Counted from the first letter of the stretch, positions 16,532 through 56,042 are shown. The stretch: DNA of 56,042 nucleotides from Opitutaceae bacterium (GCA_035506315.1 DATJPQ010000254.1:1-56042), one strand, 5' to 3'. The notes: a model not told the origin generated them from the letters alone. A program made the numbers and translations.

Positions 16532-16660
16532 AAATTTGTCGTGTTAGCACTTATTCGGGAAATCCCGCGCGAAAGGCGCAAGATTCAGAAATCCGAAATC
16601 CGAAACTCGAAATCCGAAACAAGTTAAAAATTCGAATGCGGAAATATTCCGCCGAAACAA
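16532..16660 (-). promoter_or_regulatory. Truncated copy of the conserved GH94 leader (right arm + proximal box only)
   Basis: In mRNA sense: gaatatttccgcattcgaatttttaacttgtttcggatttcgagtttcggatttcggattt...gcgggatttcccgaataagtgctaacacgacaaatttATG. This is nearly identical to the last ~130 nt upstream of GH94-C. The left inverted-repeat arm is absent. Confidence 0.55.
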
Positions 16661-16761
16661 TTCAGTTGAGCTGCAAATGAGCAGGAGGTTTTACCGCGAA
16701 GCAGCGAAGGAGCGTGAAGATCGGAGTAGCGGCGATTAGCGTTAATTGGCGGTTTCCAGCC

Positions 16762-19212
16762 TCAGGCGCCGAGCGTGGCGACGACCTGGACGGCGGTGCG
16801 GCCGTCGGTCGGGAGCGGGATGACGTTGCCGGGGATCTTCACGCCGTCGACGACGAGGGAGCGGAGGCCCTTCGATTTCGCCTTCGGGTTCTTCACCTCG
16901 ATGGTATAGGTGACGCCGCGGAATTTGCGGGTGACCGTGAAGCCCGGCCATTTTTTCGGAATGCACGGATCGATGCGCAGACCGGTGAAGTCGGGCTGGA
17001 GGCCGAGGATGTACTGGCTGGCGACCACAAAGGACCAGGCGGCCGTGCCGGTAAGCCAGGAGTTCTTCCCCTCGCCGGGAGTCGGGGAGAACTGCGACGC
17101 CGTCATCTGGGCATAGACGTAGGGCTCGCTGCGGTAGACGTCGTGGTCCCGCTTGGCCGACGGGCAGATGCTCAGGTAATACTCGAGCGCCTTCTCGCCT
17201 TCGCCAAACATCGTCCACCCGATGTGGATCCAGGTGTTGTTGTGCGAGAACACGCCGGCGTTTTCCTTGTAACCCGGCGGGTAGCTGGAGACCTCACCCA
17301 GTTCGAGGTGGTATTCCGAATAGGGCGGATATTGCAGGGCGCAGCCGAGACCGGGCGCATAGAGCAGCCGGTCGACGGCCTGCAGGGCCTTTTTCGCACG
17401 GCCGTTGTTCCGGCCGGCGCCGCCCAGGACGCACCACGCCTGGCTCTCGATGTAGAGTTTCCCCTCCAGGCATTCCTTCGAGCCGATGGGGCGGCTCGCG
17501 GCGTCGAACGCGCGCTGGTACCAGGCACCGTCCCACGCCTGCGTCTCGATCGTGTCGAGCATGGTGGCGTAATGGCCGTCGAGGCGCTTGGCGTCGTCCT
17601 CGCGCCGGAGAAACCGGTAGAGTGCGGCGAGATCGCGCGCGGCGTAGAGGAACAGCCCGGCGATCATGACCGATTCCGCCACGTCGCCCTTGCCGGCGTT
17701 GGCGGTGGTCTGGAAGGACTCGTTGGGTTGCGAGGAAAAACAGTTGAGGTTGAGGCAATCGTTCCAGTCGGCCCGGCCGATGAGCGGCAGGCCGTGCGGG
17801 CCGCGATGGCGCAGCGTGTAGCCGACGGAGATTTCGAGATGGTCCAGCAGCGTGTGCTTCGAACCGGGGACGTCGGCGCAGCCGATTGGTTCGTCGAGGA
17901 TGGTCGCGTCGCCCGTCTCGCGGACGTAGGCGCAGGTCGCGAGGATGAGCCAGAGCGGATCGTCGTTGAAGCCGCTGCCCGCATCAGCGTTGCCCTTTTT
18001 CGTCAGCGGCTGGTACTGGTGGTAGCAGGTGCCGTCGGCCAGCTGCGTGGCGGCGATGTCGAGGAGGCGCTGGCGGGCGCGTCCGGGCAGCAGATGGACA
18101 AAGCCGAGCAGGTCCTGGTTGGAATCGCGGAAGCCCATGCCGCGGCCGATGCCCGTCTCGTAACCCGAGGTGGAGCGCGACAGGTTGAACGTCGCCATGA
18201 CCTGGACCTGGTTCCAGGTATTGACCATGCGGCGCAGATGTTCGTTGGGCACCTTGGGCGCCTGGTAGATGGAGAGCAGGTCCTCCCACCGGCGTTGCAG
18301 CGCGGCGAACGCGGCGTCGACCGCCGCGAGATCGGAGAATTTCGCGAGGATGTCGCGGCCCTTCGTCTTGTTCATCACGAACGGCGCGTCGAACTTGGGC
18401 CGGTCGCCCTGTTCGACGTAGGCGAGGACGAACGCGAAGGTTTCCCCGGCGCCGGGCTGGAGGGTGAGGTTGATCTGGTGGGCACCGACGGGATTCCAGC
18501 CGTACGCGCGGCTGTTGGTGCAGCGGCCGGCGAGCACGGCCTCAGGATCGTGCAGGCCGTGGTGGACGCCGACAAAGGCGTCGCGTGAGGTGTCGTAACC
18601 GTCGATCTTCCGCGTGCAGCCGAAGAGCGTGTAGTGGTCCCGACGCTCCCGATACTCGGTCTTGTGGTAGATCGCGCTGCCCTCGATCTCGACTTCGCCG
18701 ATCGAGTAGGTGCGCTGGTAGTTCGTCATGTCGTTCAGCGCTTCGAAAAAGCAGAACTCGACGAACGAAAAGAGCGTAAGTTTCTGCGGCCGCTTCGTCC
18801 GATTGCGCACGGAGACCTTCCAGACCTCGAGGTTCTCGTCCGGCGGCACGAACATGAGTTGTTCGACCTCGATGCCGTCCTTGCGGCCGGTGATGCGCGA
18901 ATAGCCGAGGCCGTGGCGGCACTCATAGGCGTCGAGCTTCGTGCGCACCGGTTTCCACCCGGGATTCCAGATGGTCCGACCCTGTTTCACATAGAGGAAA
19001 CGGCCGTCGCCATCCATCGGGTTGTTGTTGTACCGATACCGCGTGAGACGGCGGAGGCGGGCGTCCTTCCAGAATGTGTAGCCGCCGGCCGTCTGCGAGC
19101 AGAGGCCGAAGAAATCGTCCTGGCCCAGCATGTTGAGCCAGGGCAGGGGAGTGTCGGGGCGGGTGATGACGTATTCGCGGTGGGCGTCGTCGAAATGACC
19201 GTAGGTTGCCAT
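16762..19212 (-). CDS. GH94 glycoside phosphorylase, paralogue B (divergent)
   Basis: 816 aa. N-terminus MATYGHFDDAHREYVITRPDTPLPWLNMLG. Catalytic-Asp region IGRADWNDC. No signal peptide. Clearly more divergent from A and C than they are from each other. Confidence 0.85.
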   Translation of the reverse strand: MATYGHFDDAHREYVITRPDTPLPWLNMLGQDDFFGLCSQTAGGYTFWKDARLRRLTRYRYNNNPMDGDGRFLYVKQGRTIWNPGWKPVRTKLDAYECRHGLGYSRITGRKDGIEVEQLMFVPPDENLEVWKVSVRNRTKRPQKLTLFSFVEFCFFEALNDMTNYQRTYSIGEVEIEGSAIYHKTEYRERRDHYTLFGCTRKIDGYDTSRDAFVGVHHGLHDPEAVLAGRCTNSRAYGWNPVGAHQINLTLQPGAGETFAFVLAYVEQGDRPKFDAPFVMNKTKGRDILAKFSDLAAVDAAFAALQRRWEDLLSIYQAPKVPNEHLRRMVNTWNQVQVMATFNLSRSTSGYETGIGRGMGFRDSNQDLLGFVHLLPGRARQRLLDIAATQLADGTCYHQYQPLTKKGNADAGSGFNDDPLWLILATCAYVRETGDATILDEPIGCADVPGSKHTLLDHLEISVGYTLRHRGPHGLPLIGRADWNDCLNLNCFSSQPNESFQTTANAGKGDVAESVMIAGLFLYAARDLAALYRFLRREDDAKRLDGHYATMLDTIETQAWDGAWYQRAFDAASRPIGSKECLEGKLYIESQAWCVLGGAGRNNGRAKKALQAVDRLLYAPGLGCALQYPPYSEYHLELGEVSSYPPGYKENAGVFSHNNTWIHIGWTMFGEGEKALEYYLSICPSAKRDHDVYRSEPYVYAQMTASQFSPTPGEGKNSWLTGTAAWSFVVASQYILGLQPDFTGLRIDPCIPKKWPGFTVTRKFRGVTYTIEVKNPKAKSKGLRSLVVDGVKIPGNVIPLPTDGRTAVQVVATLGA

Positions 19213-44306: not shown

Positions 44307-45842
44307 TCACTTCACCGTGCCGGCGGGTACGAGCACGGAGATCTGGTTGGGCACGGCGTAGAGCGTCCCGGCGGCGAGCACGTGGCTGAGCGCGATCCGG
44401 CGGGCCGGCAGGTTGGGCATGGGCGCCACATTCTGGAACGTCTGCGGGTTGTGGCACGAGAAGCAGTTGCCGACCGTCGAGGGCGTGGTCGATCCGGAGG
44501 CGTTCTGCAGGAACGTCTCGGCGGTGCTGTTGCAGAGGTTCACCGAGCCGACGGCGTTGGACTGGTTGCTGTTGAGGTTGTATTGGCCCGGCTTCATCCA
44601 GACCGTGCCGATGAGATCGTAGTGCGCAAAAATCGATTGCGGGGGCTTCCGGCCGGCGAGGAACTCGTGGCCGGACTGGTTGACGTTCGCGATGTTGGCC
44701 GGGCCTTCGGGCGAGTGGGTTTCGCTGCCGGTGGCGTTTTCGAGCACCACGTTGTTCGCGGGCGAGAACTTCTGCGTGACCGGATTGAACGTGAGGCGCG
44801 GGGTGGCCGTGAGCGTGGTCGTCGTGGTGATGGTGGTCGACGGCGTGGAGAGCGGCGTGCTCGTGCTGGTGCTCGTCGCCGTGGTCTGCGTGCTGGGCTG
44901 GTTGGTCTGGCCGAAAGGCGTGCCACCGACGTAGAGCGTGTAGTTGCGCGGATCGCTGGCGGTGGACGGGGGCTTGTTCGGGCCGTCGGGGAAACGGGGG
45001 TCGTTGTCGTGGTGTTCGAACGTGCCCCAGAGGAACTCGGGGTGGTTGACCGTCTGGCCGACGACGTGCAGGCCGAGCAGCGCGACCTTGACGGTCATGG
45101 TCCGGCCGGTGGGCTGGGCATAGATCGTGTTGTCGGGCGTGAGCGACACGGCGAGCACCGGCACGCGCGCCTCGGTGACATAGGCGCCCGCCGGGGGTTC
45201 CTGGCCGGCATCGAGGCGCATCCACGTGGCCTTGAAGACGGCGGCGCCGACGGGAAAGAAATCGGCGTCGCCATTCGCCAGATAGCCGCCGTTGATGACG
45301 AGATTCCGCTTCGCGGTGGCGAAGTATGCCTCGTTCATGTGCACGGACGCGTAAACCGGATAACCGTTGGGCGCGACGAGCATGTTGCCGTCGGCCTCGA
45401 CGATGGCGCCGGTGCCCTCGATGTAGGCGCCGGTGGCGTGGATGTCCCGCGTGCCCAGGGTGAGCATGGGCGGCTCGGCGGACGGCGGGGCGCCGTCGGG
45501 TTTGAGCAAATCCGCGGGCGTGTGGAGCGTCATGAAGCGCGGCACGCCGTGCGCATCGAGCGCGGTGGCCCACACGAAGGCCTCCCACGACCACTGGTGA
45601 AACATGCAGTCGCTGGCATCGAGCGGGGTGTCAGTGGTGGGAAACGCCGCGTCCGGCTGGAGGTACTTCGCGAGGTTTTCCTCCCACCCGAGGGTGGGAC
45701 ACATCGCGGCCGGCGCGGGCTTGGGCGCGGGCGTCGTATAGGTCTGGGCCGACAACATGCACGCGGCGACGAAACTCATCGAGGCGGAGAGAACAAAGCC
45801 GAAGCGGCTGGAGACGCTGCGGGGAAAGACAGGGTGTTTCAT
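44307..45842 (-). CDS. Secreted protein of unknown function with Thr/Ser-rich linker and C-terminal CXXCH motif (511 aa)
   Basis: Signal-like N-terminus MKHPVFPRSVSSRFGFVLSASMSFVAACMLSAQ. Linker QPSTQTTATSTSTSTPLSTPSTTITTTTTLTATP. CFSCH is encoded at 44451-44465. Shares blocks with the 46091-48220 product (FKATWMRL/VKAAWRLL; LLGLHVVGQTVNHPEFLWGTFEH/LLGLHIIQKTPSAPYFIFATFEH). Confidence 0.65.
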   Translation of the reverse strand: MKHPVFPRSVSSRFGFVLSASMSFVAACMLSAQTYTTPAPKPAPAAMCPTLGWEENLAKYLQPDAAFPTTDTPLDASDCMFHQWSWEAFVWATALDAHGVPRFMTLHTPADLLKPDGAPPSAEPPMLTLGTRDIHATGAYIEGTGAIVEADGNMLVAPNGYPVYASVHMNEAYFATAKRNLVINGGYLANGDADFFPVGAAVFKATWMRLDAGQEPPAGAYVTEARVPVLAVSLTPDNTIYAQPTGRTMTVKVALLGLHVVGQTVNHPEFLWGTFEHHDNDPRFPDGPNKPPSTASDPRNYTLYVGGTPFGQTNQPSTQTTATSTSTSTPLSTPSTTITTTTTLTATPRLTFNPVTQKFSPANNVVLENATGSETHSPEGPANIANVNQSGHEFLAGRKPPQSIFAHYDLIGTVWMKPGQYNLNSNQSNAVGSVNLCNSTAETFLQNASGSTTPSTVGNCFSCHNPQTFQNVAPMPNLPARRIALSHVLAAGTLYAVPNQISVLVPAGTVK

Positions 45843-46090: not shown

Positions 46091-48220
46091 CTATTGACGG
46101 AAGTAGTTGTGGAGCTTCAGGCGCAACGCTTCCATCTCGGCCGGGGTGAAGGCGAACTTCGCCTGATCGTGATTGGCCACGGGCCCGCCGTCGAAGATAA
46201 AGCTGAAGTCCGTCGCGCCATTGTGGGGAGGTACGCCCACCGAGCGATTGCCATGGCAGCCCATGCATCCGCCCATGTTGTTGGCCGTGCCGGCATGGTA
46301 GACGTTGTAGAACGGACTGGGCACCGCCGCCGTCGACGCATTTCTGACAACGGTTGTGGCGGGAGTCGGTGTCGTGTCCGTGTAGGTCACCGGGGCGAAG
46401 TAGTAGTCGGTGATATTGTTGCTTTGCCCGGCGAATTGCCCGCTGAAGCCCGAGAGCACGATGTTCGTCTCGATCATGCTGTTCGACTGGTAGTAGCTGG
46501 CCGGAGGCACGCCATTGATCGCCGTGGTCAAGGCCTGGCCGGAGGGCTTGTTGACCGGTTTCCACTGCACGTTGGTGAGGCGGTAGTTCAGCCAGATATT
46601 CGCAGCCTGCTGGTAGCCGTAGGTGGAGATCAAACCGTGAATACTGCGGTTGATATTGACGATCTCGTTCGGGATGAGGAACCGGCGGCGGTTGACGTCG
46701 AGATAGGGCGTGGAGGTGGGCGTCGGAGGGCCAATATTGTCGGCGGGGAGACCACTTTTCTGGGTGTTGATATAATAGGAACTGCTGCCCCCGGGGCCCA
46801 CGCCGGTGGAGCCGGTCGTTTCGTTCGGCACGAAGATCTCACCCTCGGGACTGCCGGCGGTGGCGAATTGCGTGAACACATTCGAGGTGGTCGGATCCTT
46901 GAGATATTGGCCGGGGGGCGGGTTGCCCTTGTTCACGTCACCCTGCAAGACATAGCCAGCGGGCGGCTGCGTCGGCACCGTGGCGCTGTAGGCGTTGGGG
47001 GTGAGCCCGCCGTTTTGGTCCTCGACCGCGTTGCCGGACTGGTTGCGGATGTTGCTCACGTGCTCGAACGTGGCGAAAATGAAGTAAGGGGCAGAGGGTG
47101 TCTTCTGGATGATGTGAAGACCGAGCAGAACGGCCGGCGCATCCACCGGCTTGGTGGGGTCCGCGACGAGAGCGCCGGGATTGGTCGTCGGCTGGCTGTC
47201 CGATGCGGCGACGGGGTAATATCGGACCATCGCCCAATGGTAGCCGGGCACCTGGCCGGTCTGCTGAAAAACGGCGGTTTCCTTGGTAGTGAGCAGCCGC
47301 CAGGCAGCCTTCACCTCGATCGTGCCATTGGGGAAGCTGATATACGGCCCCGGGTTCGACGGGGTGCCGAACTCCGCGCCGGGCGGAGGCAGCTTTTGGT
47401 TGGCCAGCACGTAGCCCGAGGTGTTGTTCTCGATCAGGCCCACCGCGCTCGAATTGGTATTCCACCACTGGCGCGAGGACACGTAGTTGTATTGCTTGCG
47501 ACTGGCCTTCGCGAGAAAGAGCACGAGCCTTCCGGGAAACTGAGTCGGCGCACCATCGCCGGCGGGGAGGCCAGCGAACATCTGGCACGTGCCAATCTGA
47601 CTGTTCTCGTCGAGGTTGACGAATGGAGCCGGCTTGGTGGAGCCGTTGTAGCCATAGCCGGGAGAGATGCCATTGGCGTAGTTGTATTGGGGGAAGGCGT
47701 CGAAACCGAAATCGAGATCGGCGTTGTTGACGTAGCCATTGGGCGGCAGGAGCATGCTGTTGGAGGTCAAACCGCCGTAGATTTCAGGCTTGTTGCGCAG
47801 GGTTTCCCAGACGAGCGCCGGGTAGGCGGCGGTTTGTCCGTTGACCAGGTAGGCGCCCGCCGGCTGGCCAAACTGCTTCGATCCGTCGGCCGTTTCGCGC
47901 GTGCCGAGGCTTCCGGTCACGGGCACATTGGGCCAGCTCAGGGCGATGAATTCCTGCCAGGCGAACAAGCTGGCCTCGGTGATCGTGGCCGATGCGGCGC
48001 CGCCCGGGATGTCGGACAGGGGAACGATGGAGCTCGGCCCGGACGTCGACAGCATGTTCTGGATGTTGGCTTGGATCGCGGCAGCGTTCGGACTGAGGGC
48101 GGAGGCACCCGCCGATGCGGTCGATTGAGCGTGCACGGTGGAGGAAACGAGGATCGCGGCGAGGGCAATGCCGGCCGCACGGGCAGCGTGGCGGCCGGAG
48201 TGAAAGGGTCTTGTCTTCAT
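46091..48220 (-). CDS. Secreted protein of unknown function, larger paralogue, C-terminal CXXCH motif (709 aa)
   Basis: Start placed at ATG 48220 (MKTRPFHSGRHAARAAGIALAAILVSSTVHAQ, signal peptide). The ORF-track extension to 48472 is Arg/Pro-rich and overlaps the upstream gene. CMGCH is encoded at 46253-46267. Confidence 0.65.
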   Translation of the reverse strand: MKTRPFHSGRHAARAAGIALAAILVSSTVHAQSTASAGASALSPNAAAIQANIQNMLSTSGPSSIVPLSDIPGGAASATITEASLFAWQEFIALSWPNVPVTGSLGTRETADGSKQFGQPAGAYLVNGQTAAYPALVWETLRNKPEIYGGLTSNSMLLPPNGYVNNADLDFGFDAFPQYNYANGISPGYGYNGSTKPAPFVNLDENSQIGTCQMFAGLPAGDGAPTQFPGRLVLFLAKASRKQYNYVSSRQWWNTNSSAVGLIENNTSGYVLANQKLPPPGAEFGTPSNPGPYISFPNGTIEVKAAWRLLTTKETAVFQQTGQVPGYHWAMVRYYPVAASDSQPTTNPGALVADPTKPVDAPAVLLGLHIIQKTPSAPYFIFATFEHVSNIRNQSGNAVEDQNGGLTPNAYSATVPTQPPAGYVLQGDVNKGNPPPGQYLKDPTTSNVFTQFATAGSPEGEIFVPNETTGSTGVGPGGSSSYYINTQKSGLPADNIGPPTPTSTPYLDVNRRRFLIPNEIVNINRSIHGLISTYGYQQAANIWLNYRLTNVQWKPVNKPSGQALTTAINGVPPASYYQSNSMIETNIVLSGFSGQFAGQSNNITDYYFAPVTYTDTTPTPATTVVRNASTAAVPSPFYNVYHAGTANNMGGCMGCHGNRSVGVPPHNGATDFSFIFDGGPVANHDQAKFAFTPAEMEALRLKLHNYFRQ

Positions 48221-48470
48221 TGTATGGTAGTTGAGAGGTTGGATTCGGTTGACGGTGGGGAGAGAAAGCCGGTCGCGAGGGCGGCCAGCGGATCGATCGT
48301 GTGCCCGGTGCGACGGGCGGGGATTGGGGCATGCGGCTAGGGCAAGGTTGTTTTCATGGTGATGGATGAGCTGAAAGGCAGGATTCGGTTCGGGTGGGAA
48401 CGAGGACGCCGGTCGCGAGGGCGGCCAGTTGCCCGATCGTGTGTGCGGCCCAACGGGCCGAAAAAGGCGC
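48211..48470. repeat. Imperfect ~137-bp tandem duplication spanning a gene junction, with relic start codon
   Basis: 48211-48335 aligns with 48348-48470. For example, ggattcggttgacggtgggg...ccggtcgcgagggcggccagcggatcgatcgtgtgcccgg aligns with ggattcggttcgggtgggaa...ccggtcgcgagggcggccagttgcccgatcgtgtgtgcgg. The relic ATGAAAACAACCTTGCCCTAG (48357-48337, minus strand) parallels the real start ATGAAGACAAGACCC at 48220. Confidence 0.7.
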
Positions 48471-50240
48471 ACGGGTGACGGTGAGGTTGCCGATGAGATT
48501 GCCCTCGGTGGGGATCCCGATCACGGCGATGTCCGGATTCGGTGTGCCGTCGGCTCCGACCACGCACTGGGTGTCAGGAGTCATGTCGATCGCGCCGGGG
48601 CGGTAGCCGCCGTTGGCAAACGGCCGGATGAGACCGCGCGCCAGGAGCGAACGCCCGAGCGGCGTCACGTCGCGTTCGACATGGTTGGGCGGATAGCGGG
48701 CGTCGATCAGGACGTCCGCGTCCGTGCGCACACCGTCGGGCAGACTGCTGCGCAATGCGAAACGTCCGCCGCCCGCGGGCAAGCTGACCTCCGGAGCGCG
48801 GGCGAATCCGAAATCGACGATCCCGGCGCGCGCCAGCGCGAGGATCTTTTCCGCGTTCTGCACCGGCGGGCCGAAGACCACGCGTTTGAACTGCGACGCG
48901 AATCCGCCGGCCACCGAACGCTGCGACTCCGGTGTGAGGCCGGCGAACTGCCAGACAGGCTGCAGGGCATAACGGACCTCATGCCAGATATCGATGGCGG
49001 CCTTGAGCGGCGAACCCCGGTGACCGGCGCGTGATCGTGCGATCTCGCAATCGAGGTAGGCGACGATCGCGTGGTGCAGCGCCGCCGCGGTCGCCGGGCA
49101 CCGGCCGGCCAGAGGATCGAGCACGGGAGCCGGATCGAAGGGAACCTGTCCGGGATGTTCGCGCCGATAGTCTGCGATCACCCGCCGCAGCGCCGCGGCA
49201 TCGTCCCCACCGGCTTCGAGCCGGTCCCGCCAGAGGCCGGGGCCCATCGCCGCCTGATAATAGGCGCGCGCCATCTCCAGCTCGACCAAGGGGAGCAGCT
49301 CACGCGCAAAATCGAGCTGGCGACCGTCCGCCCGGCGGCGCATCGCCTCCACGCGCGCCGGAGGCGTGAAGGTCAGCGGACGCAGGGCAACCGGGAGATC
49401 GACCGCTTTGGGAATCGCCGGCAGGCCCGAGCGGCTGAACGGCCGGATGACCCGGGGCTCGACGCCGGAGGCGCGGTAACGGAGCCCTCCCGTGGCCGGG
49501 CGCTCGAAGCGACCGCCGCGACCTTCGGTGAGAGCGAGGGCCGCGTCGATGAACGTCAGCCCCATCCCCTTCATCGCCACCTCCGCACCCGGCGCGATGT
49601 CGCGCAGGTTTGGCGTGACCGGGAACACGAACGGGACGAAACGCGCGCGCGACGAAGCGGCGGCAAACGCCGAACAGGCCCGGTCCGGCCCGGTGGGCGC
49701 GACGCGCGCGTGTCCGGTGGCGAGAAGAATCTTGTGCGCCACGATCCGGCGGCGCGCGCCATCGGCGGCCGCGAGCGTGATGACGTAGTGTCCGTCCTCC
49801 GGGATCAGGTCTTCCGCCTCGCCGACCTGCGGGCGCAGTTCGACGCCGGGAGGCACGTGGCGTTCCAGGTGCCGGAAACAATCGCGCAGGTAGCGCCCGA
49901 CCAGCGCGCGCGGCAGATATTCGCCGCCGGTGAGCGGGGCGGAGCCCGCCGCGCCCTGGCGGGCCTGCCAGGCGATGAAATTCGGTCCACGCCCGCCCAC
50001 GGGTGGAGGGTCTTCGTCGCCCCAGGCGTCGATGTCGGCGATGCTGTTGTTCGTGACGAGGTAGTCCGGCTGGTCGGTGGCGTAAACCGGACTCACACCG
50101 AACTCGGCGCCGCGATTGATGGCGTGCACGACCACCGGGACGGGCAGCGGCGCGGCCGCAAGTCCGGCGAGCAGCCGCTCGAGGCTGTGCAGCCCCTTGG
50201 GCCCGAGGCCGACGATGGCGATGGCGACCGTGTCGTTCAT
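48354..50240 (-). CDS. FAD/NAD(P)-binding Rossmann-fold oxidoreductase-like protein (628 aa)
   Basis: Start placed at ATG 50240 (MNDTVAIAIVGLGPKGLHSLERLL, with the GxGxxG dinucleotide-binding motif). It overlaps the upstream stop as ATGA. The ORF-track N-terminal extension to 51002 is an Arg/Pro-rich out-of-gene read-through. Confidence 0.55.
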   Translation of the reverse strand: MNDTVAIAIVGLGPKGLHSLERLLAGLAAAPLPVPVVVHAINRGAEFGVSPVYATDQPDYLVTNNSIADIDAWGDEDPPPVGGRGPNFIAWQARQGAAGSAPLTGGEYLPRALVGRYLRDCFRHLERHVPPGVELRPQVGEAEDLIPEDGHYVITLAAADGARRRIVAHKILLATGHARVAPTGPDRACSAFAAASSRARFVPFVFPVTPNLRDIAPGAEVAMKGMGLTFIDAALALTEGRGGRFERPATGGLRYRASGVEPRVIRPFSRSGLPAIPKAVDLPVALRPLTFTPPARVEAMRRRADGRQLDFARELLPLVELEMARAYYQAAMGPGLWRDRLEAGGDDAAALRRVIADYRREHPGQVPFDPAPVLDPLAGRCPATAAALHHAIVAYLDCEIARSRAGHRGSPLKAAIDIWHEVRYALQPVWQFAGLTPESQRSVAGGFASQFKRVVFGPPVQNAEKILALARAGIVDFGFARAPEVSLPAGGGRFALRSSLPDGVRTDADVLIDARYPPNHVERDVTPLGRSLLARGLIRPFANGGYRPGAIDMTPDTQCVVGADGTPNPDIAVIGIPTEGNLIGNLTVTRAPFSARWAAHTIGQLAALATGVLVPTRTESCLSAHPSP

Positions 50241-51427
50241 AGGATCGAGGCGAGCGAATGAAGGCCGTAGCGTTGCGGACAGCTGGTCGTCCCCAGGTCG
50301 GAACCGGTGAAACGCGTGCCGTCCAGATAGGTGCGGTGGAGTTTGGCCTGGCTCCAGCGGAGCACTTCGTCGATGGCCGGGGTTCCGACTCCGGCGAGTT
50401 CGGCCACGCCACGGATCGGCACGAGTCCGAACGGCACATCCTCGCTCAGGAAACGGCTCTGGAAATCCGGCATCCATCCGCCGGCCGCGGCGCGCACCAT
50501 CGGGTGCGTCATCGTCTGGTAGGCGTGGTTCGTGCGCAGCGCCGTGAACTGGGTTGAAGGGTCGGCGATCTCCGCGCCATACGCGAGGCGGTCCCACTGG
50601 AGCATGGGAATGACCGCGGTGAGATCCTTGCGCGGAAAACGCTCCGCGATCCGGTCGCGGATGGTGAGGACCTCGTCGCTCATGCGGGTCATCAGGCCGG
50701 CGGTTTCGCGGCTGATGCCCTGGTAAAACACGGGCGGCTCGGCCAGCGGCCGGCCGTCCCAATCCCGCCACGCGCCATACATGATCGGCGGGTGGCTGTA
50801 GGCGTTGACCGACATGAGCGTGATCGCGAGCAGGCTGGGCGACTCGACCACGCGCGTTTGAGGGCCGGCGATGCGCCGGATCAGCCCGAACGGATCCTTG
50901 ATGCGGGCGCGGGTGAGGTCGCCGCGCAGGGCCCCGGTGAGGTAGGTCTTCGCCCCGCAAATCTGGACCAGCCGTCCGAAACGGAGCACGCGGCACGCCC
51001 ACGGCGCCGACTCGAAGTTCATCACGATGACCGGCCGGTGCGCGAGGTGCCGGGCCACTTCACACTCGAAACCGCCCTGGCCGGGAAAGCCGACCAGCAC
51101 CGCGCCGGCCGCGATGTGCGGGGCGAGAAGCGCGAGGTATTCGCCGAGGACAAAAGCGGTGACGGCGGTGAAGATCAGGTCGCAGCCGCGCGCGATGGCG
51201 GGATCGTCCGACACGAGCACGCGTCCGGCGCGCGCGGCTTCGCGGGCCTGGCCGTTGATTCCCTGGATGACCACGAGGCCGCCGTGGGCCGCCTCCTCCC
51301 GCCAGCTGGCGGCCTTCCCGGCATTTTGGGTGAAGAGACGCACTTCGAACCCGGGGTCGGCGCTGAGCAATCCGGCCAGCACATGGGCGGTGTTGCCACT
51401 GCCGCAAACGAGGATCCGGCTAGTCAT
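50237..51427 (-). CDS. NAD(P)-dependent opine (octopine/nopaline) dehydrogenase family protein (396 aa)
   Basis: Start placed at ATG 51427 (MTSRILVCGSGNTAHVLAGLLS, the Rossmann GxGxxA typical of this family). The length and C-terminal helical domain are consistent with the family. The start overlaps the upstream VOC gene by 8 nt. Confidence 0.55.
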   Translation of the reverse strand: MTSRILVCGSGNTAHVLAGLLSADPGFEVRLFTQNAGKAASWREEAAHGGLVVIQGINGQAREAARAGRVLVSDDPAIARGCDLIFTAVTAFVLGEYLALLAPHIAAGAVLVGFPGQGGFECEVARHLAHRPVIVMNFESAPWACRVLRFGRLVQICGAKTYLTGALRGDLTRARIKDPFGLIRRIAGPQTRVVESPSLLAITLMSVNAYSHPPIMYGAWRDWDGRPLAEPPVFYQGISRETAGLMTRMSDEVLTIRDRIAERFPRKDLTAVIPMLQWDRLAYGAEIADPSTQFTALRTNHAYQTMTHPMVRAAAGGWMPDFQSRFLSEDVPFGLVPIRGVAELAGVGTPAIDEVLRWSQAKLHRTYLDGTRFTGSDLGTTSCPQRYGLHSLASIL

Positions 51428-51926
51428 GGCCCGGGGGAGTCGGCGGTCGTTTGAGTTGGGTTTGATCGACCGCGAAAATCGGATGAGCGAATTTCCACCG
51501 GTGGCCCTCCGGGTCGACGGCTTCGTAAACCCGCTCGCCGTGCCACTGGTCGGCCGGGGCGAACGTGATCCGTGCGCCGGCGGCGATCGCGCGGGCATGA
51601 TGGGCGTCGACATCGTCGACGTAGATGAAGAGGCGGTGCATTATCTGCCCCCCGAGGTCGAGCGGGCTCGCCCAGTGGGCATGCTCGCGCGCGAGACCGA
51701 GCATCACGAGGCCGTCGTGGAGCTCGAGTTCGGCATGGACGACGAGGCCCGTGTCATCGGCGATGCGCAGGCGGCAGTTGAAGCCAAAAGCCCCGGCCAG
51801 CCAGTCGGCCGCCGCGGCCACATCGCGGTAGAAGAGGTGCGGGACGATGCGCGGCATGCCGGGCGGCGGGTTGGGCAGGGGCGATCGGGAAGCGGAGGAG
51901 GTTGTGCTGGAAGCAATGGTGGACAT
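51420..51926 (-). CDS. VOC (glyoxalase/bleomycin-resistance/dioxygenase) fold protein
   Basis: ~145-168 aa. The pattern IVPHLFYRDVAAAADWLAGAFGF...HAELELHDGLVMLG...LFIYVDDVDAHHARAIAAGARI...YEAVDPEGHRWKF is typical of small VOC proteins. The start could be 51926 or 51857. Confidence 0.6.
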   Translation of the reverse strand: MSTIASSTTSSASRSPLPNPPPGMPRIVPHLFYRDVAAAADWLAGAFGFNCRLRIADDTGLVVHAELELHDGLVMLGLAREHAHWASPLDLGGQIMHRLFIYVDDVDAHHARAIAAGARITFAPADQWHGERVYEAVDPEGHRWKFAHPIFAVDQTQLKRPPTPPGHD

Positions 51927-51937
51927 GGGAAAGGAGA

Positions 51938-52984
51938 CTAAGTCCGGTGGCGGGGCGAAGCGGCGATCAGGGCGCCCAACTCGAGCACGAGCGCGGCGGC
52001 GAGCAGGGAAGTGATCTGACCCGGCGAGTCGTAGGCCGGGGCAACCTCCACGACGTCGGCACCGACGACGTTCAAGCCCTTGAACTCGCGCAGCAGGGCC
52101 AGCGCTTCATAACTCGTGAAGCCGCCGGGGACGGGCGTGCCGGTTCCGGGCGCGAAAGCCGGATCGACGCCGTCGATGTCGAACGTGAGGTAGCACGGAC
52201 CGTCGCCGGCCTGCCGGCGCAAACGCGCGAGAAAGGCCGCGCGCCCGGCGGGATCGTGGGCGCCGCACATGGTCAGCAGGCTGATGCCCTGCTCCTCGGC
52301 AAAGCGGAAGTAGTCGCGGGTGCCGACCGAGCCACGGAGGCCGATCTGGAACACGCGATGGCCGGCGACCGACTCCTCGGCTATGGCGTCGCGCACGCAA
52401 GTGCCGTGGTGCCGCCAGGGCGGGCCGCCGGCATCGGTCGTGTCGAAATGCGCGTCGATCTGGATCAGAGTCAGCCCGGCGTGGCGCCGGCTCGTGGCGC
52501 GGAGGATCGGCACGAGCACGGAGTGGTCGCCACCCAGTGCAATCACATCCGCGCCCGCGTCGTGGAGTTCCGTCACGCAGGCCGCGATGCGCTCCATCGT
52601 TTCCGCCGGATCGCCCGTCCTGACGGCGACATCGCCGGCGTCGCGACCGGGCAGGCGGCCAAAGACCTCCACGCCCATCAGCAACGAATGGCTGCGGCAC
52701 AGCCGCGAGGCTTCGCGGATGGCTGTCGGACCGGCGCTGGCGCCTCTGCGGCAGGTGACGGAACCATCCCACGGGATGCCGAGGACCGCCAGTTGTCCGC
52801 CGCGAACGCGGTTGCCCGGCGTGTTTGTCGCGACCAGGGCCGGCAGCTGCATGAACGTGTCGCTGGCGGGCGTCCGGTCCGGCCGGAGACCGGACGAGGC
52901 GCGGGGAGCCGTGGCGGGCGGGGGCATGGCCGCGGCATGGCTCGTGGCAGGGCTTGGAAGCGGGAGGCGTGGCGGCGCATTCAT
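51938..52984 (-). CDS. Arginase/agmatinase/guanidino-acid hydrolase (ureohydrolase) family protein
   Basis: Metal-binding motifs of the arginase family: ALGGDHSV, IDAHFDT, LTFDIDGVDPAFAPGTGTP, DVVEVAP. Start placed at ATG 52984, overlapping the pstB-fusion stop as ATGA. The longest ORF runs to 53029. Confidence 0.75.
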   Translation of the reverse strand: MNAPPRLPLPSPATSHAAAMPPPATAPRASSGLRPDRTPASDTFMQLPALVATNTPGNRVRGGQLAVLGIPWDGSVTCRRGASAGPTAIREASRLCRSHSLLMGVEVFGRLPGRDAGDVAVRTGDPAETMERIAACVTELHDAGADVIALGGDHSVLVPILRATSRRHAGLTLIQIDAHFDTTDAGGPPWRHHGTCVRDAIAEESVAGHRVFQIGLRGSVGTRDYFRFAEEQGISLLTMCGAHDPAGRAAFLARLRRQAGDGPCYLTFDIDGVDPAFAPGTGTPVPGGFTSYEALALLREFKGLNVVGADVVEVAPAYDSPGQITSLLAAALVLELGALIAASPRHRT

Positions 52985-54252
52985 GCGGATGGCCTCGCGG
53001 GGTATTGGGGCGCAGCGTGCAGGCGCCAACGGACGAGTTCCTTGATGCGTCCGGCGACGTGGCAGGGAAACTCAAGGTCACCCTCGCGCGGATCCTCCAA
53101 GTCATCGACGGGGTCGAGCGGCTGGATCTTGCCGGTGTGGGCCGGATATTGCCGGGCCAGCGTCTCGCACTGGCCGCGCGTCATGCAGAAGACGATGTCG
53201 GCCTGTTCCAGCATTTCGGCGGTAATCGGGCGGGAGGCATGGCCGCCGTGGGCGAGATCCATCTTTTCCAGCACACGGCGCGCGGCCGGGTTGGGCGGGA
53301 GTCCGTCGATGGTGGAGGAGCTGGCGTTCCAGGCGTTTTCGTCCGGCTGCTCCCCCGCGTCGGCGCAGCCGCCGGGCAGACCGGAGATCTCCTCGCGGCC
53401 GATGGCCTGCGCCATGAGCGAATGGCGGTTGTGGCCCGGGCCGATGACCAGGAATTTCTTGTCCAGAATCTGCGCGGCGGTCGTCGGGCGCTGGTCAACG
53501 ATCGCGCCCATGCCGATGAAGCGCCGCACGCCCTCGTCGGCGGCCGCGTGCAGAATCGCCGGCAACGGACCAAACTCGGCGAGGCGGCCTCCGCGTTCGC
53601 CGCGCAGCATGAACCCGGCGCGATCGCCGACGCGCTCGGCGAGTGCGACCTTGTGCGTGACCATGACGATGAGGCGTTCGCGCGCGAGGGTGCGGACCAG
53701 TCTTTCGATCTGGATGCTGCTGATCGGGTCGAGCGCCGAAGTCGGCTCGTCCATCAGCAGAACCTCCGGTTGTAACGCGACCGCGCGGGCGATGGCGAGC
53801 CGTTGCTGCTGGCCGCCCGACAAATTGCGGGCCGGCGCATCCAGGCTCAGCTCCCGCGCTAGCCCGACATCCTCGAGCACATGCTCGGCGATGCCGCGAA
53901 TCTCCCGCCGGGCGGTGCGGCCGTCGTGCCGCAGGCCGAATTCCACATTGGCGCGCACGCTGCCCATGAGCATGGCGGGCAATTGCTGGATGTAGCCGAC
54001 CCGGCGGGTGAGCTCCCGCCGGGGCCCGGCGAAAATGCTGCGGCCGTCCAGCAGGATGTCGCCCGAGCGCGTCCAGCCGTCCACGCCGCCCTCGATGAGC
54101 CGCTGGGTGGCCTTCAGCAACGAGCTTTTGCCGACGCCGGACGGGCCGAGCAGGATCACGACGCCGGGTCCGGTGAGGTCGAGATCGACGGCCTCGATGA
54201 CCGGTCGGCGGGCGACCGCGAGCGCCAGCTGCTGGTAACGGAGGTGGATCAT
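52981..54252 (-). CDS. pstB: PstB-like phosphate ABC transporter ATPase fused to a C-terminal LMW-PTP/ArsC-like domain with degenerate P-loop
   Basis: ATPase part: Walker A GPSGVGKSS, PstB-type signature LSGGQQQRLAIARA, Walker B LLMDEPTSALD, H-loop VTH. The C-terminal ~160 aa align by eye to the LMW-PTP fold (FLVIGPGHNRHSLMAQAI versus consensus VCxGNxCRSPMAEA; ...ADIVFCMT...; LEDPREG versus DPY/F). The start ATG 54252 overlaps the pstA stop (ATGA). Confidence 0.75.
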   Translation of the reverse strand: MIHLRYQQLALAVARRPVIEAVDLDLTGPGVVILLGPSGVGKSSLLKATQRLIEGGVDGWTRSGDILLDGRSIFAGPRRELTRRVGYIQQLPAMLMGSVRANVEFGLRHDGRTARREIRGIAEHVLEDVGLARELSLDAPARNLSGGQQQRLAIARAVALQPEVLLMDEPTSALDPISSIQIERLVRTLARERLIVMVTHKVALAERVGDRAGFMLRGERGGRLAEFGPLPAILHAAADEGVRRFIGMGAIVDQRPTTAAQILDKKFLVIGPGHNRHSLMAQAIGREEISGLPGGCADAGEQPDENAWNASSSTIDGLPPNPAARRVLEKMDLAHGGHASRPITAEMLEQADIVFCMTRGQCETLARQYPAHTGKIQPLDPVDDLEDPREGDLEFPCHVAGRIKELVRWRLHAAPQYPARPSA

Positions 54253-55055
54253 CCCGCGAACCTCTGCTCCCCCTGCGCCCACGAGACCGCCAGCTGCACC
54301 AATGCCGCGAGCGCGAAGAGGAGCGCGGCGGCGGCATAGGCGGCCTGCTGCCCACCGGGAACGCTGGTGAGCAAGTGGAAGATATATACCGCCAGCGTCG
54401 CCGCCGAATCGAAGCACGAATGCGGGATCGAGGCGGCCACGCCGGACGTGAACAACAACGCGGCGGCATCGCCCAGGCCCCGCCCCGCCGCGAGCGCCGC
54501 CGTGGCGGTGAGCGCCGGGCGCGCCGCGGGCACGATCTGCCGCCAGACCGTCGCCCAACGGCTCGTCCCGAGGGCACGGCACTGCTCGGCGAGCGCCGGA
54601 TCGACGGCGCTGAGTCCGGAGATGAACCCGGCCGTCATGATCGGCGCCATCAGGCAGGCCAGCGTCAGGACGCCCGTGGCGACGGAGAACCCGAATCCCA
54701 GTACGCCGCCGAACAGCGCCGCGCCGAACAAGCCCCACACGATGCGGGGCACGCCGATGCCGATGTTGAGCACAATGTGGGAGAAGCGCCCGAACCACGC
54801 CGGGCGCCGCATCTCGGTGATGAACACCGCCGCCGGCAAACTCAGGGCCGTCGCCAGCAGCGTGGCCGCGCCCACGACGATGCCGGTCGAAACCAGGACC
54901 GGGCCGATCCCGCCGCCGCGCCCGAGGTCGCGGGGCTCGCGCACCAGATAGCCGGGGCGGAATCCCGCCGCGCCGCGCACGAATAAATCGACGCCGATCC
55001 CGATCGTCAGCGCGACGAGCAGCGCCGTGGCCAGGGCACCCGCCACCCGGATCAT
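54249..55055 (-). CDS. pstA: PstA-like phosphate ABC transporter permease
   Basis: 268 aa from ATG 55055 (MIRVAGALATALLVALTIG...). Hydrophobic. PstA-type motif GRGLGDAAALLFTSG and ALGTSRWATVWRQIVP. ATGA overlap with the pstC stop. Confidence 0.75.
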   Translation of the reverse strand: MIRVAGALATALLVALTIGIGVDLFVRGAAGFRPGYLVREPRDLGRGGGIGPVLVSTGIVVGAATLLATALSLPAAVFITEMRRPAWFGRFSHIVLNIGIGVPRIVWGLFGAALFGGVLGFGFSVATGVLTLACLMAPIMTAGFISGLSAVDPALAEQCRALGTSRWATVWRQIVPAARPALTATAALAAGRGLGDAAALLFTSGVAASIPHSCFDSAATLAVYIFHLLTSVPGGQQAAYAAAALLFALAALVQLAVSWAQGEQRFAG

Positions 55056-55873
55056 CTGACCTCCTCCCTGATTTGGTTGAGGCGCACCAGATTGGCAGTG
55101 GCAACGAGCAACATCGTCAGCGCAGCCAGGAAAAATAGCGCCTGCCGGTGCGCCCCGGAAGAGCCATCGTAGTCCACGATCAGCGTCGTGGTCAGCGTGG
55201 AAAATGGCCGCGCCAGACTCCACGGCCAGTTGGGCACATTGCCGGCCACCATGCTGATCGCCACCGCCTCGCCCACGGCCCGGCTCGTGGCCAGCAGGGC
55301 GGCTGCAAACACGCCGCGCCGCGCCCGCGCGAGCAGCACGCGCGTGACCGCCGCCTCGCCCACCGGCAGGGCGCGGCTGGTCTCCACGAGTTTGGCCGGG
55401 ACCTGTCGCAACGCCGCGCCCGCGAGGAGCGCGAACGTGGGCGTGATCATCACCGCAAGCACGATGACGGCGGATGCGAGCGAGTTGCCCAGGAGCGGCA
55501 CGACCCAGGTCATGCCCCACAGGCCGATCACGACCGACGGCACGCTGCCCAGCAGGCCGATCGCGGCGTCACATGCGCGCCGCACGCCGGCGCCCGCATA
55601 CAGGGCCAGATAAACCGCCGTCGCCAGACCCACGGGCAGGGCCAGCGTCAGCGCCAGCCCACCGGCCACCGCCGTGCCGGCCGCCAGCGACCACACTCCG
55701 AAGTTCCCGGAGTGCGGCGCCCAGTGCCAGCCGCCCAGGCTCCATCCCAGTTCGACCAGCGCCCGGCCACCGACGAGCCCCAGAAATGCCGCCAGCGCGA
55801 GTCCCGCCCACAGCGGGCCGGTCCCCAGCGCGCCGAGCGCGGCCCAACGGCCAGACTCAGAGGATCGGGACAT
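55052..55873 (-). CDS. pstC: PstC-like phosphate ABC transporter permease
   Basis: 273 aa. Motifs SGNFGVWSLAAGT, GSVPSVVIGLWG and SRAVGEAVAISMVAGN as in PstC. The start overlaps the end of the upstream binding-protein gene by 17 nt. Confidence 0.75.
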   Translation of the reverse strand: MSRSSESGRWAALGALGTGPLWAGLALAAFLGLVGGRALVELGWSLGGWHWAPHSGNFGVWSLAAGTAVAGGLALTLALPVGLATAVYLALYAGAGVRRACDAAIGLLGSVPSVVIGLWGMTWVVPLLGNSLASAVIVLAVMITPTFALLAGAALRQVPAKLVETSRALPVGEAAVTRVLLARARRGVFAAALLATSRAVGEAVAISMVAGNVPNWPWSLARPFSTLTTTLIVDYDGSSGAHRQALFFLAALTMLLVATANLVRLNQIREEVR

Positions 55874-56042
55874 ACTTCGCCTCCCGGATGATCTGCTGGC
55901 CGTCCTTGCTGTGGAAAAAATCGATCAGCACGCGGCCCTGTGCGCTGGGGGCGCCCCTGGCGATGAGGTAGAGCTGGCGGAACATCGGATACGTTTTGTC
56001 CGCGATGTGCGCCAGGGTGGGCTCGATGCCGTCGAGGGTCAG
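55857..56042 (-). CDS. pstS: Phosphate-binding protein (PstS/PhoT family), C-terminal fragment truncated by the window edge
   Basis: The last 61 codons read LTLDGIEPTLAHIADKTYPMFRQLYLIARGAPSAQGRVLIDFFHSKDGQQIIREAKYVPIL*, which resembles the C-terminus of PstS-type periplasmic binding proteins. It is not in the ORF track because it is partial. Confidence 0.6.
   Translation of the reverse strand: MTLDGIEPTLAHIADKTYPMFRQLYLIARGAPSAQGRVLIDFFHSKDGQQIIREAKYVPIL

Follow-up and report, generated by a model that had tools for sequence, protein, structure and literature searches.

A candidate operon that joins a Pst-like transporter cassette to opine dehydrogenase, amidinohydrolase and N-monooxygenase genes in an Opitutaceae bacterium

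Several described systems share parts with the locus analysed here, i.e., eight minus-strand genes at one end of a 56,042-nucleotide stretch of DNA from an Opitutaceae bacterium (GCA_035506315.1, DATJPQ010000254.1, positions 1-56042; this whole stretch is called the window below), which join a Pst-like ATP-binding cassette (ABC) importer to an arginase-family amidinohydrolase, a vicinal oxygen chelate (VOC) protein, an opine dehydrogenase (ODH) and a flavin N-monooxygenase. The PstSCAB-PhoU system of the E. coli type has the same four-part architecture, in the same order of binding protein, two permeases and ATPase. In Agrobacterium, the occ/noc systems unite in one regulon the ABC import of an opine derived from arginine, its cleavage and an arginase, and they resemble the locus by this association of an importer with processing enzymes, arginase included. 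In the Cnt opine metallophore systems, an opine dehydrogenase is found either beside a TonB-type receptor and a transporter of the drug/metabolite transporter (DMT) type (cntOLMI) or beside an ABC importer (cntKLM-ABCDF-E), a layout that matches the acidobacterial relatives of our locus. For the individual proteins, the closest described relatives are the octopine dehydrogenase (OcDH) of the scallop Pecten maximus and other invertebrate opine dehydrogenases, the CreE/FzmM flavoproteins (8cp2; nitrosuccinate synthases) and the YwlE/DARP protein arginine phosphatases.

The locus departs from each of these systems. Compared with PstSCAB-PhoU, its cassette proteins are shorter (a binding protein of about 275 residues and permeases of 273 and 268), a K-x-E-G-H-A-T loop stands, in the binding proteins of relatives, where R-x-x-x-S-G-T is found, the profile scores lie under the curated cut-offs, phoU is missing, the ATPase of the window carries a domain with a low-molecular-weight (LMW) phosphatase fold, and the operon runs on into enzyme genes. 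The occ/noc importers are of the polar-amino-acid type and work with a membrane flavoprotein oxidase (OoxAB/NoxAB), whereas N-monooxygenase, VOC protein and phosphatase domain are absent from them. Unlike the Cnt systems, the locus has no CntL-type gene (the domains that Pfam assigns to the window unit and to its annotated relatives include no nicotianamine synthase domain of this type); moreover, its ODH is of the PF02317 scallop type, and the hydrolase, the N-oxygenase and the phosphatase domain come in addition.

We propose, with a probability of roughly one half, that the eight genes form a composite operon dedicated to an anionic guanidino compound derived from arginine, which would be imported and then converted inside the cell; they would not be the general phosphate importer of the cell. 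The parts all come from known families; it is the cassette subfamily and the enzyme module that are without a description in the literature searched by keyword. Brief keyword searching on the enzyme combination, on PF13454 and on PstB-phosphatase fusions gave no relevant description.

Layout of the locus and its recurrence in relatives

The features are listed below in the order of transcription, with positions counted from the first letter of the window.

55857-56042, minus strand: PstS-family binding-protein gene, 3' end only, 61 aa (PF12849, E 1.9e-5; TIGR02136, E 2.2e-7)
55052-55873, minus strand: PstC-like ABC permease, 273 aa (BPD_transp_1; best NCBIfam match TIGR02138)
54249-55055, minus strand: PstA-like ABC permease, 268 aa (best NCBIfam match TIGR00974)
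52981-54252, minus strand: pstB-like fusion gene, 423 aa (ABC ATPase plus LMW-phosphatase-fold domain)
53488-54252, minus strand: PstB-like ATPase domain, residues 1-255 of the fusion (ABC_tran, E 7e-25; best match TIGR00972)
52981-53487, minus strand: YwlE-like LMW-phosphatase-fold domain, C-terminal on the ATPase (PF01451, E 4.5e-8)
51938-52984, minus strand: arginase-family amidinohydrolase, 348 aa (PF00491, E 7e-78)
51420-51926, minus strand: VOC protein (glyoxalase/bleomycin-resistance fold), 168 aa (PF00903, E 6e-10)
50237-51427, minus strand: scallop-type ODH (Octopine_DH family), 396 aa (PF02317)
48354-50240, minus strand: class B flavin N-monooxygenase of the CreE/FzmM family, 628 aa, with VGLGPKG (PF13454, NAD_binding_9)
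46091-48220, minus strand: possible ninth gene, secreted 709-aa protein with a C-terminal CxxCH (homologues after the flavoprotein gene in the related loci L047 and L049)

Open reading frame (ORF) listing and start/stop mapping placed the eight genes between 48354 and 56042, with successive junctions of a 17-nt overlap, ATGA, ATGA, ATGA, an 11-nt gap, an 8-nt overlap and ATGA. Gene order, strand and every junction are thus exactly those reported in an initial annotation of the same DNA, and the family that it had assigned to each gene was upheld by profile searches in both Pfam and NCBIfam. The partner of the pstB-like fusion, which it had left unnamed, is an LMW-phosphatase domain (PF01451). 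The absence of phoU was also confirmed, both within and after the eight-gene unit. In the public annotation of the identical contig, the VOC gene begins at 51857 (145 aa), and the gap would then measure 80 nt; about 40-60 N-terminal residues of the arginase-family protein have no counterpart in most homologues and may not be translated. We found no convincing internal terminator in the unit (11 terminator-like sites, for 7.0 +/- 2.6 expected), and nothing inside it exceeded the shuffled expectation in the promoter/terminator scan. A search against Rfam that covered the whole window and seven related loci returned nothing, hence no guanidine, molybdenum cofactor or other riboswitch. The only public contig that carries these genes stops where the window does, so that the 5' part of pstS and the promoter lie beyond its end; the closest relative, L054, is likewise cut within pstS. 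The G+C content of the eight-gene block (48001-56000) is 0.69-0.71, for 0.58-0.68 in the remaining window and 0.62 in the adjacent 46-48 kb, and, judging from this composition, the block may have been acquired.

In order to place the unit among its relatives, 63 loci were gathered through a genome scan, a metagenome scan and contig look-ups. In L047/L048, whose ODH is 61% identical to that of the window, a permease, an ATPase-phosphatase fusion, a nitroreductase-family protein, a VOC protein, an ODH and the flavoprotein are encoded in the same order. Two fragments from the clade of the window, L049 and L054 (85-91% identity), between them cover both halves of the unit, and the more distant L052 carries a full cassette directly before ODH and arginase-family genes. 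The linkage between cassette and enzymes thus recurs in three lineages (the window clade, L047/L048 and L052), which supports the proposal, already made from the window sequence, that these genes form one functional unit.

Neighbours were counted in the 32 non-redundant ODH loci of at least 12 kb. A flavoprotein gene lies near the ODH gene in 30 of them, a multicopper oxidase gene in 25, and VOC and arginase-family genes in 24 each; a membrane protein of 340-390 aa with a DMT fold is found in 21, an Ig-like protein of 198 aa in 13, a domain of the LMW-phosphatase family (LMWPc) in 12, an ATP-grasp protein resembling D-Ala-D-Ala ligase (Ddl) in nine and a TonB-type outer-membrane protein in six. 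These loci come mostly from Acidobacteriota, with some from Solirubrobacterales and Pseudonocardiaceae and one contig binned to Nitrosopumilus. No partner genes were found near the ODH homologues of cyanobacterial metagenome-assembled genomes (Moorena, Microcoleus), and homologues of at most 38% identity (L008, L009) were excluded from the module, their contexts being unrelated. The multicopper oxidase, a protein of 750-810 aa with a twin-arginine translocation (TAT) signal (15534-18431 in L001, and equivalents in 25 loci), is the commonest non-enzyme neighbour; it is often preceded by the 198-aa Ig-like protein, and it is absent from the window. In three loci (L039, L041 and L042, at about 11-15.5 kb), a WtpA-like binding protein and a ModB/ModC-like fusion are encoded beside the ODH-flavoprotein pair, and L017 has a ModB-ModC fusion with a modA remnant (14881-17033) beside the same module.

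The 340-390-aa membrane protein has no Pfam match and is modelled as a ten-helix DMT fold that resembles triose-phosphate/phosphate and nucleotide-sugar translocators. Its C-terminus carries, in about half of the loci, an intact phosphatase domain with the motif C-S-G-N-T-C-R-S. This protein and the Pst-like cassette are mutually exclusive, i.e., they never occur in one locus. In Acidobacteriota, the fusions of a DMT fold with an intact YwlE-like phosphatase, of about 550 aa (8320-9972 in L001; P0241-P0360), form a large family, which the source annotation calls just 'protein-tyrosine-phosphatase'; more than 120 clusters of this partner were found at 66% identity or more.

A Pst-derived cassette with a phosphatase-fold domain

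For all four transporter parts, the top NCBIfam match is a Pst family despite scores that stay below the curated cut-offs: the PstC-like permease reaches 137 bits (TIGR02138, cut-off 196), the PstA-like permease 134 (TIGR00974, 193), the PstB-like ATPase 188 (TIGR00972, 343), and the cassette binding proteins of relatives 156-175 (TIGR02136, 206.6). Related loci contain complete cassettes of constant make-up, with a PstS-family lipoprotein of 272-281 aa, permeases of about 273 and exactly 268 aa, and the fused ATPase. The window proteins belong with them. Indeed, the pstS fragment shares 48% identity with the C-terminal end of the L052 cassette binding protein, which is full-length, the PstC-like permease is 49-59% identical to the cassette permeases of L051-L063, and the PstA-like permease is 57-60% identical to its cassette homologues, every one of which has 268 aa. 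The family of ATPase-phosphatase fusions comprises, from a homology search, 74 sequence clusters at 39-100% identity and includes Verrucomicrobiota and Candidatus Entotheonella. Verrucomicrobiota and Entotheonella also hold the closest named relatives of the cassette (at most 45% identity), those of the enzymes (about 50%) being in Acidobacteriota. No PhoU, response-regulator or histidine-kinase domain was found in any gene of three annotated cassette loci.

The nearest solved relatives of the cassette binding proteins are phosphate-binding proteins (4gd5, E 1e-38). The phosphate loop was compared in nine full-length relatives, as the window copy of the binding protein is limited to 61 C-terminal residues. 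These nine homologues keep the first three of the four segments that contact phosphate (E. coli T10, S38 and D56). The fourth, which corresponds to R135 and S139-G140-T141 of E. coli PstS, reads K-[AG]-E-G-H-A-[TL] in all nine, for R-x-x-x-S-G-T/S in six of six solved relatives. Since the clamp loop of PstS is replaced, the cassette ligand is probably not bound as PstS binds orthophosphate. Judged from its sequences, the importer is a distinct Pst-derived ABC subfamily and not a canonical Pst system, and the label of Pst-type phosphate importer given in the initial annotation finds no support in that form: its parts score below the curated Pst cut-offs and the phosphate loop is changed in the binding-protein family.

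The cassette sample, on which all cassette counts rest, is small, with 14 loci, several of them short, and a metagenome scan with the permease alignment gave at least 10 loci. In seven of the cassette loci (L051, L052, L055, L057, L058, L059 and L062), a trio of genes stands upstream, encoding a YncE-like beta-propeller of about 648 aa with a YtkA-like region, a SCO1/SenC protein of about 350 aa and a Peripla_BP_6 protein of about 430 aa, the last being fused to a cytochrome c in L051. From this arrangement, the trio and the cassette look like an uncharacterised larger system.

The domain fused to the ATPase has kept its fold. The AlphaFold2 model of the window domain (pLDDT 83, pTM 0.79) has the fold of the LMW protein tyrosine phosphatases (LMW-PTPs), its best Foldseek matches are YwlE structures (4etn, 4kk4, 4kk3, 4pic), and its TM-scores to YwlE and Wzb are 0.77-0.85. 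For the AlphaFold model of an acidobacterial homologue, YwlE is also the best match, with Wzb and other LMW-PTPs close behind, as for the window domain. YwlE/DARP phosphatases are therefore the closest fold for both, and the relatives of the window domain share with them a CxxNTxRS loop with its Thr; the difference is that the domain is here fused to a transporter subunit instead of being free-standing. Among the 74 fusion proteins, the P-loop Cys is kept in 71, of which 70 keep the Arg too, and the usual P-loop is C-G-E-N-T-S-R-S, with Thr at position 5. A Thr at this position shifts LMW-PTPs from phosphotyrosine to phosphoarginine (PMC7772506).

On the contrary, the P-loop of the window domain reads GPGHNRHS where CxxNTxRS is expected and departs from C-x5-R-(S/T), so that the Cys nucleophile and the P-loop Arg of YwlE are both missing. 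The relatives of the same clade have GSGDNSQS (82% identity) and GTGNSTQT (57%), i.e., Cys is replaced by Gly and Arg by His or Gln, and this loss of the active site is confined to the window clade. The Asp general acid is still present. As the nucleophilic Cys and the P-loop Arg are lost, the window domain could only bind or regulate, without the canonical mechanism; by canonical chemistry it is predicted to be catalytically dead. An arsenate-reductase reading of the fused domain was rejected, because it lacks the second and third cysteines, i.e., the redox cysteines of ArsC proteins of the pI258 type, and because its conserved Cys sits in a C-M-T motif that resembles the C-M-D motif of LMW-PTPs. 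What ties the transporter to the enzymes is this phosphatase-fold domain, which rides on whichever transporter serves the enzyme set.

The enzymes and the genes downstream

The window ODH matches P. maximus OcDH (3c7a) over its full length (E 3.5e-83, 283 bits), the bacterial ODH of Arthrobacter scoring 41 bits. It belongs to the PF02317 scallop type, PF10100 hits being faint and limited to some homologues. The equivalents of OcDH H212, R324, D329, Q118, E142 and W278 are all kept. His212, Arg324 and Asp329 make up the catalytic His-Arg-Asp set of OcDH. In 46 ODH homologues, H212, R325, D330 and W278 are invariant, Q117 is found in 42 and E/D139 in 45. The roles of H212, E142 and W278 have been described in the scallop enzyme, where the guanidinium is held by Glu142 and Trp278 (PMC2924402). 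The likeness thus extends to the His-Arg-Asp set, to the Gln118 equivalent and to the guanidinium residues; the window ODH, known from its sequence, differs in being bacterial and in standing in an operon with a hydrolase and an N-oxygenase, and not at the end-step of glycolysis.

The arginase-family protein scores 200 bits with TIGR01230, above the cut-off of 174, and 252 bits with NF002564, below that of 302. Its best solved relatives are the 3-guanidinopropionase GpuA (3nip) and the guanidinobutyrase GbuA (3nio), with E. coli agmatinase ranking behind them. In 32 orthologues, all six Mn ligands (H154, D177, H179, D181, D269 and D271, in the motifs GGDHS, DAHxD and DxDxxDP) are invariant. 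A guanidino or opine theme had been put forward from the window alone. It is strengthened by the hydrolase, nearest to guanidinopropionase and guanidinobutyrase, and by the ODH, in which the scallop catalytic residues and both guanidinium residues are kept. At the place where the hydrolase gene would stand, a nitroreductase-family gene is found in L047/L048 (2127-2801), L035 and L036, three lineages without the hydrolase.

For the VOC protein, the best solved relative is the thiocoraline-binding protein TioX (3itw, E 3e-15), which is non-enzymatic. Residues H30, H64, E135 and H142 are invariant, and the position of the last Glu ligand, four residues after the DPxG turn, is occupied by a Lys (K145) in 31 of 31 orthologues.

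The flavoprotein is 32% identical over 555 residues to the L-aspartate N-hydroxylase 8cp2, and it shares with CreE/FzmM the three-domain class B flavoprotein family and the catalytic Asn. The aspartate pocket is different. Of seven aspartate-binding residues, only R412 is unchanged in the window protein, the others being replaced (R13K, R266K, R276L, R409H, N413Y and R416Q), and across 38 orthologues K15, K278 and R423 alone are conserved among the pocket positions, so that the aspartate cluster is not reproduced. As these residues are lost, the flavoprotein probably acts on an amine other than aspartate, which would probably carry a carboxylate. No lyase-family hit of the CreD/FzmL type was obtained in Pfam scans of the unit genes and annotated relatives.

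The 709-aa gene begins 133 nt beyond the flavoprotein gene and has no Pfam or NCBIfam match. Its homologues directly follow the flavoprotein gene in L047 (56% identity) and L049 (82%), and the protein may thus form part of the unit, acting as a redox partner in the periplasm. It was also considered as the multicopper oxidase of the module and rejected, as it is not homologous. The 709-aa protein and the 511-aa product of the next gene (44307-45842, minus strand) are distant paralogues, both secreted, each with a single C-terminal CxxCH and neither with a Pfam or NCBIfam match. A direct repeat of 103 nt (48229-48331 and 48369-48471, 72% identity, 140 nt apart) corresponds to the 5' region of the 709-aa gene copied into the 3' end of the flavoprotein gene, and its upstream copy holds the remnant of an ATG-led mini-ORF. 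At the same flavoprotein/709-aa junction, L049 and L047 have shorter repeats with a spacing of 133-137 nt.

Proposed function and alternative explanations

We infer the nature of the substrate, the direction (import, then catabolism or salvage) and what each enzyme does from the families and residues described above. In a first module, the pstS'-C'-A'-B' cassette, a binding-protein-dependent ABC importer, would bring the compound into the cell. The Mn-dependent amidinohydrolase would strip urea from its guanidino group, the octopine-dehydrogenase-type enzyme would link pyruvate and an arginine-like amino acid by a secondary amine, or split that bond, and the CreE/FzmM-like flavoprotein would N-oxygenate an amine of the substrate or of the product. 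The TioX-like VOC protein would bind or isomerise an intermediate. In most other bacteria with these enzymes, the DMT-fold transporter, often fused to an intact YwlE-like phosphatase, would serve them. As ABC systems that depend on a binding protein are importers, both types of transporter are most simply read as importing the substrate of the enzymes. That the substrate is a guanidino compound is suggested independently by the ureohydrolase, by the ODH residues that bind guanidinium and by the arginine-phosphatase signature of the intact domains. This signature, together with the PstS ancestry of the binding protein and the phosphate-translocator-like DMT fold, makes an N-phosphorylated compound possible in some lineages. 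Where the phosphatase is intact, the transported compound may be such a phosphoguanidine; in the window, the degenerate domain would bind or regulate, like the C-terminal regulatory domains of other ABC importer ATPases. The phosphagen-like compound suggested in the initial annotation thus gains from the YwlE-like domain and from the arginine-phosphatase Thr of its relatives, and loses from the inactive domain of the window and from the enzyme loci, about half, that have no phosphatase.

Several observations weigh against the proposed uptake and conversion of a guanidino compound. The window domain is dead, and 20 of the 32 larger ODH loci yielded no phosphatase, so a phosphoryl group cannot be essential to the substrate. 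The arginase-family gene is replaced by the nitroreductase-family gene in L047, L035 and L036 and is missing from several other loci, which indicates that the guanidino step is not universal. The ODH gene is found in just three of the 14 cassette loci, the cassette standing more often after the beta-propeller, SCO1 and Peripla_BP_6 trio. The binding protein of the window itself is represented by 61 C-terminal residues alone. To our knowledge, the characterised members of the flavoprotein's family are all biosynthetic, and TioX is a self-resistance binding protein, which fits a biosynthetic cluster better than catabolism. More generally, a biosynthetic or metallophore reading accounts better for the N-oxygenase and the TioX-like protein, as well as for the ATP-grasp ligase, the receptor and the oxidase.

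The genes might accordingly be those of a biosynthetic cluster with its own uptake system, for a new opine metallophore or a redox-active secondary metabolite; this is the main rival explanation, which we regard as tentative and somewhat unlikely. The ODH would form an opine from arginine and pyruvate, the amidinohydrolase would convert it to an ornithine-type opine, the flavoprotein would install a chelating N-hydroxy or hydroxamate-type group, the VOC protein would protect the producer, and the ABC importer here, or a TonB-type receptor and DMT protein elsewhere, would move the product or its metal complex. The flavoprotein is indeed a full-length homologue of a biosynthetic L-aspartate N-hydroxylase, the VOC protein is closest to TioX, and the larger loci include the ATP-grasp (9/32), the TonB-type protein (6/32) and the TAT-secreted multicopper oxidase (25/32); cntOLMI, likewise, combines a receptor, an opine dehydrogenase and a DMT exporter. 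However, the Pfam assignments of the annotated loci hold no nicotianamine-synthase-like CntL domain, the scheme gives no role to the phosphatase domain or to the PstS-type binding protein, and the window unit has no exporter. Moreover, the DMT protein and the ABC importer interchange and share the fused domain, which argues that both work in the same direction, and this direction is import for the ABC system.

It appears unlikely that the cassette is a true phosphate importer of high affinity, with the phosphatase-fold domain standing in for PhoU as a cytoplasmic sensor of phosphate and brake, and with the enzyme genes as chance neighbours in a compact genome. LMW-phosphatase P-loops bind phosphate, phoU is absent, all four parts match PstS, PstC, PstA and PstB best, and the binding proteins are nearest to solved phosphate-binding proteins with three of four contact segments kept. 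Against this, the scores stay far under the cut-offs (137/196, 134/193, 188/343 and 156-175/206.6), the clamp Arg and Ser-Gly are replaced in nine of nine binding proteins, and the P-loop of the window clade, having neither Cys nor Arg, would be poor at sensing phosphate. The adjacency of cassette and enzymes in three lineages, with overlapping stop and start codons, speaks against chance neighbours, and the three annotated cassette loci hold no PhoU, response-regulator or histidine-kinase domains.

A system for an oxyanion (vanadate, molybdate, tungstate or arsenate), in which an importer and a binding or reducing domain would work with an N-hydroxy-iminodiacid chelator similar to the amavadin ligand, is more doubtful still. 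Oxyanion-type importers do lie beside the ODH-flavoprotein pair in two more lineages (WtpA-like with ModB/ModC-like proteins in Pseudonocardiaceae, and L017 in Acidobacteriaceae, whose ModB scores 232 bits, above the cut-off of 183), the binding loop is altered, and the N-hydroxylation of an opine would yield amavadin-type chemistry; but the Mod-type neighbours may be chance housekeeping genes, the three Pseudonocardiaceae loci represent one lineage, related Acidobacteriaceae loci have no Mod genes, the fused domain lacks the second and third cysteines of arsenate reductases, the Rfam scans revealed no metal-related riboswitch in the window or the seven loci, and the amidinohydrolase is left without a role. 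Its most specific form, a bacterial N-hydroxylated opine made by the ODH and then the flavin N-hydroxylase (the N-hydroxy-iminodipropionate chemistry of the amavadin ligand) that, together with a phosphate-type or molybdate-type oxyanion importer and a phosphatase-fold domain that binds anions, captures a metal travelling as an oxyanion (V, Mo or W), has a very slim chance; if true, bacteria would for the first time be credited with an amavadin-like pathway, and metallophores would gain a new class.

If, on the other hand, the locus serves the uptake and conversion of a guanidino compound through a Pst-derived importer, a sizeable number of genes automatically labelled 'phosphate transport system ATP-binding protein' would be members of another transporter subfamily, marked by a fused phosphatase-fold domain and an altered binding site, and it would be a mistake to tally them in soil metagenomes as capacity for phosphate uptake. 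Many uncultured soil bacteria carry the four-enzyme module, which is common among uncultured Acidobacteriota and pairs an animal-type octopine dehydrogenase with an N-oxygenase; that the closest solved relative of this ODH is an animal enzyme raises the question of the origin of invertebrate opine dehydrogenases. The presence of a YwlE-like domain on two unrelated types of transporter hints at a more general arrangement, with a phosphatase for small molecules, or an inactive form descended from it, at work on the cytoplasmic face of an importer. Should the proposed reading hold, free phosphoguanidines would become a testable class of substrates for bacterial uptake.

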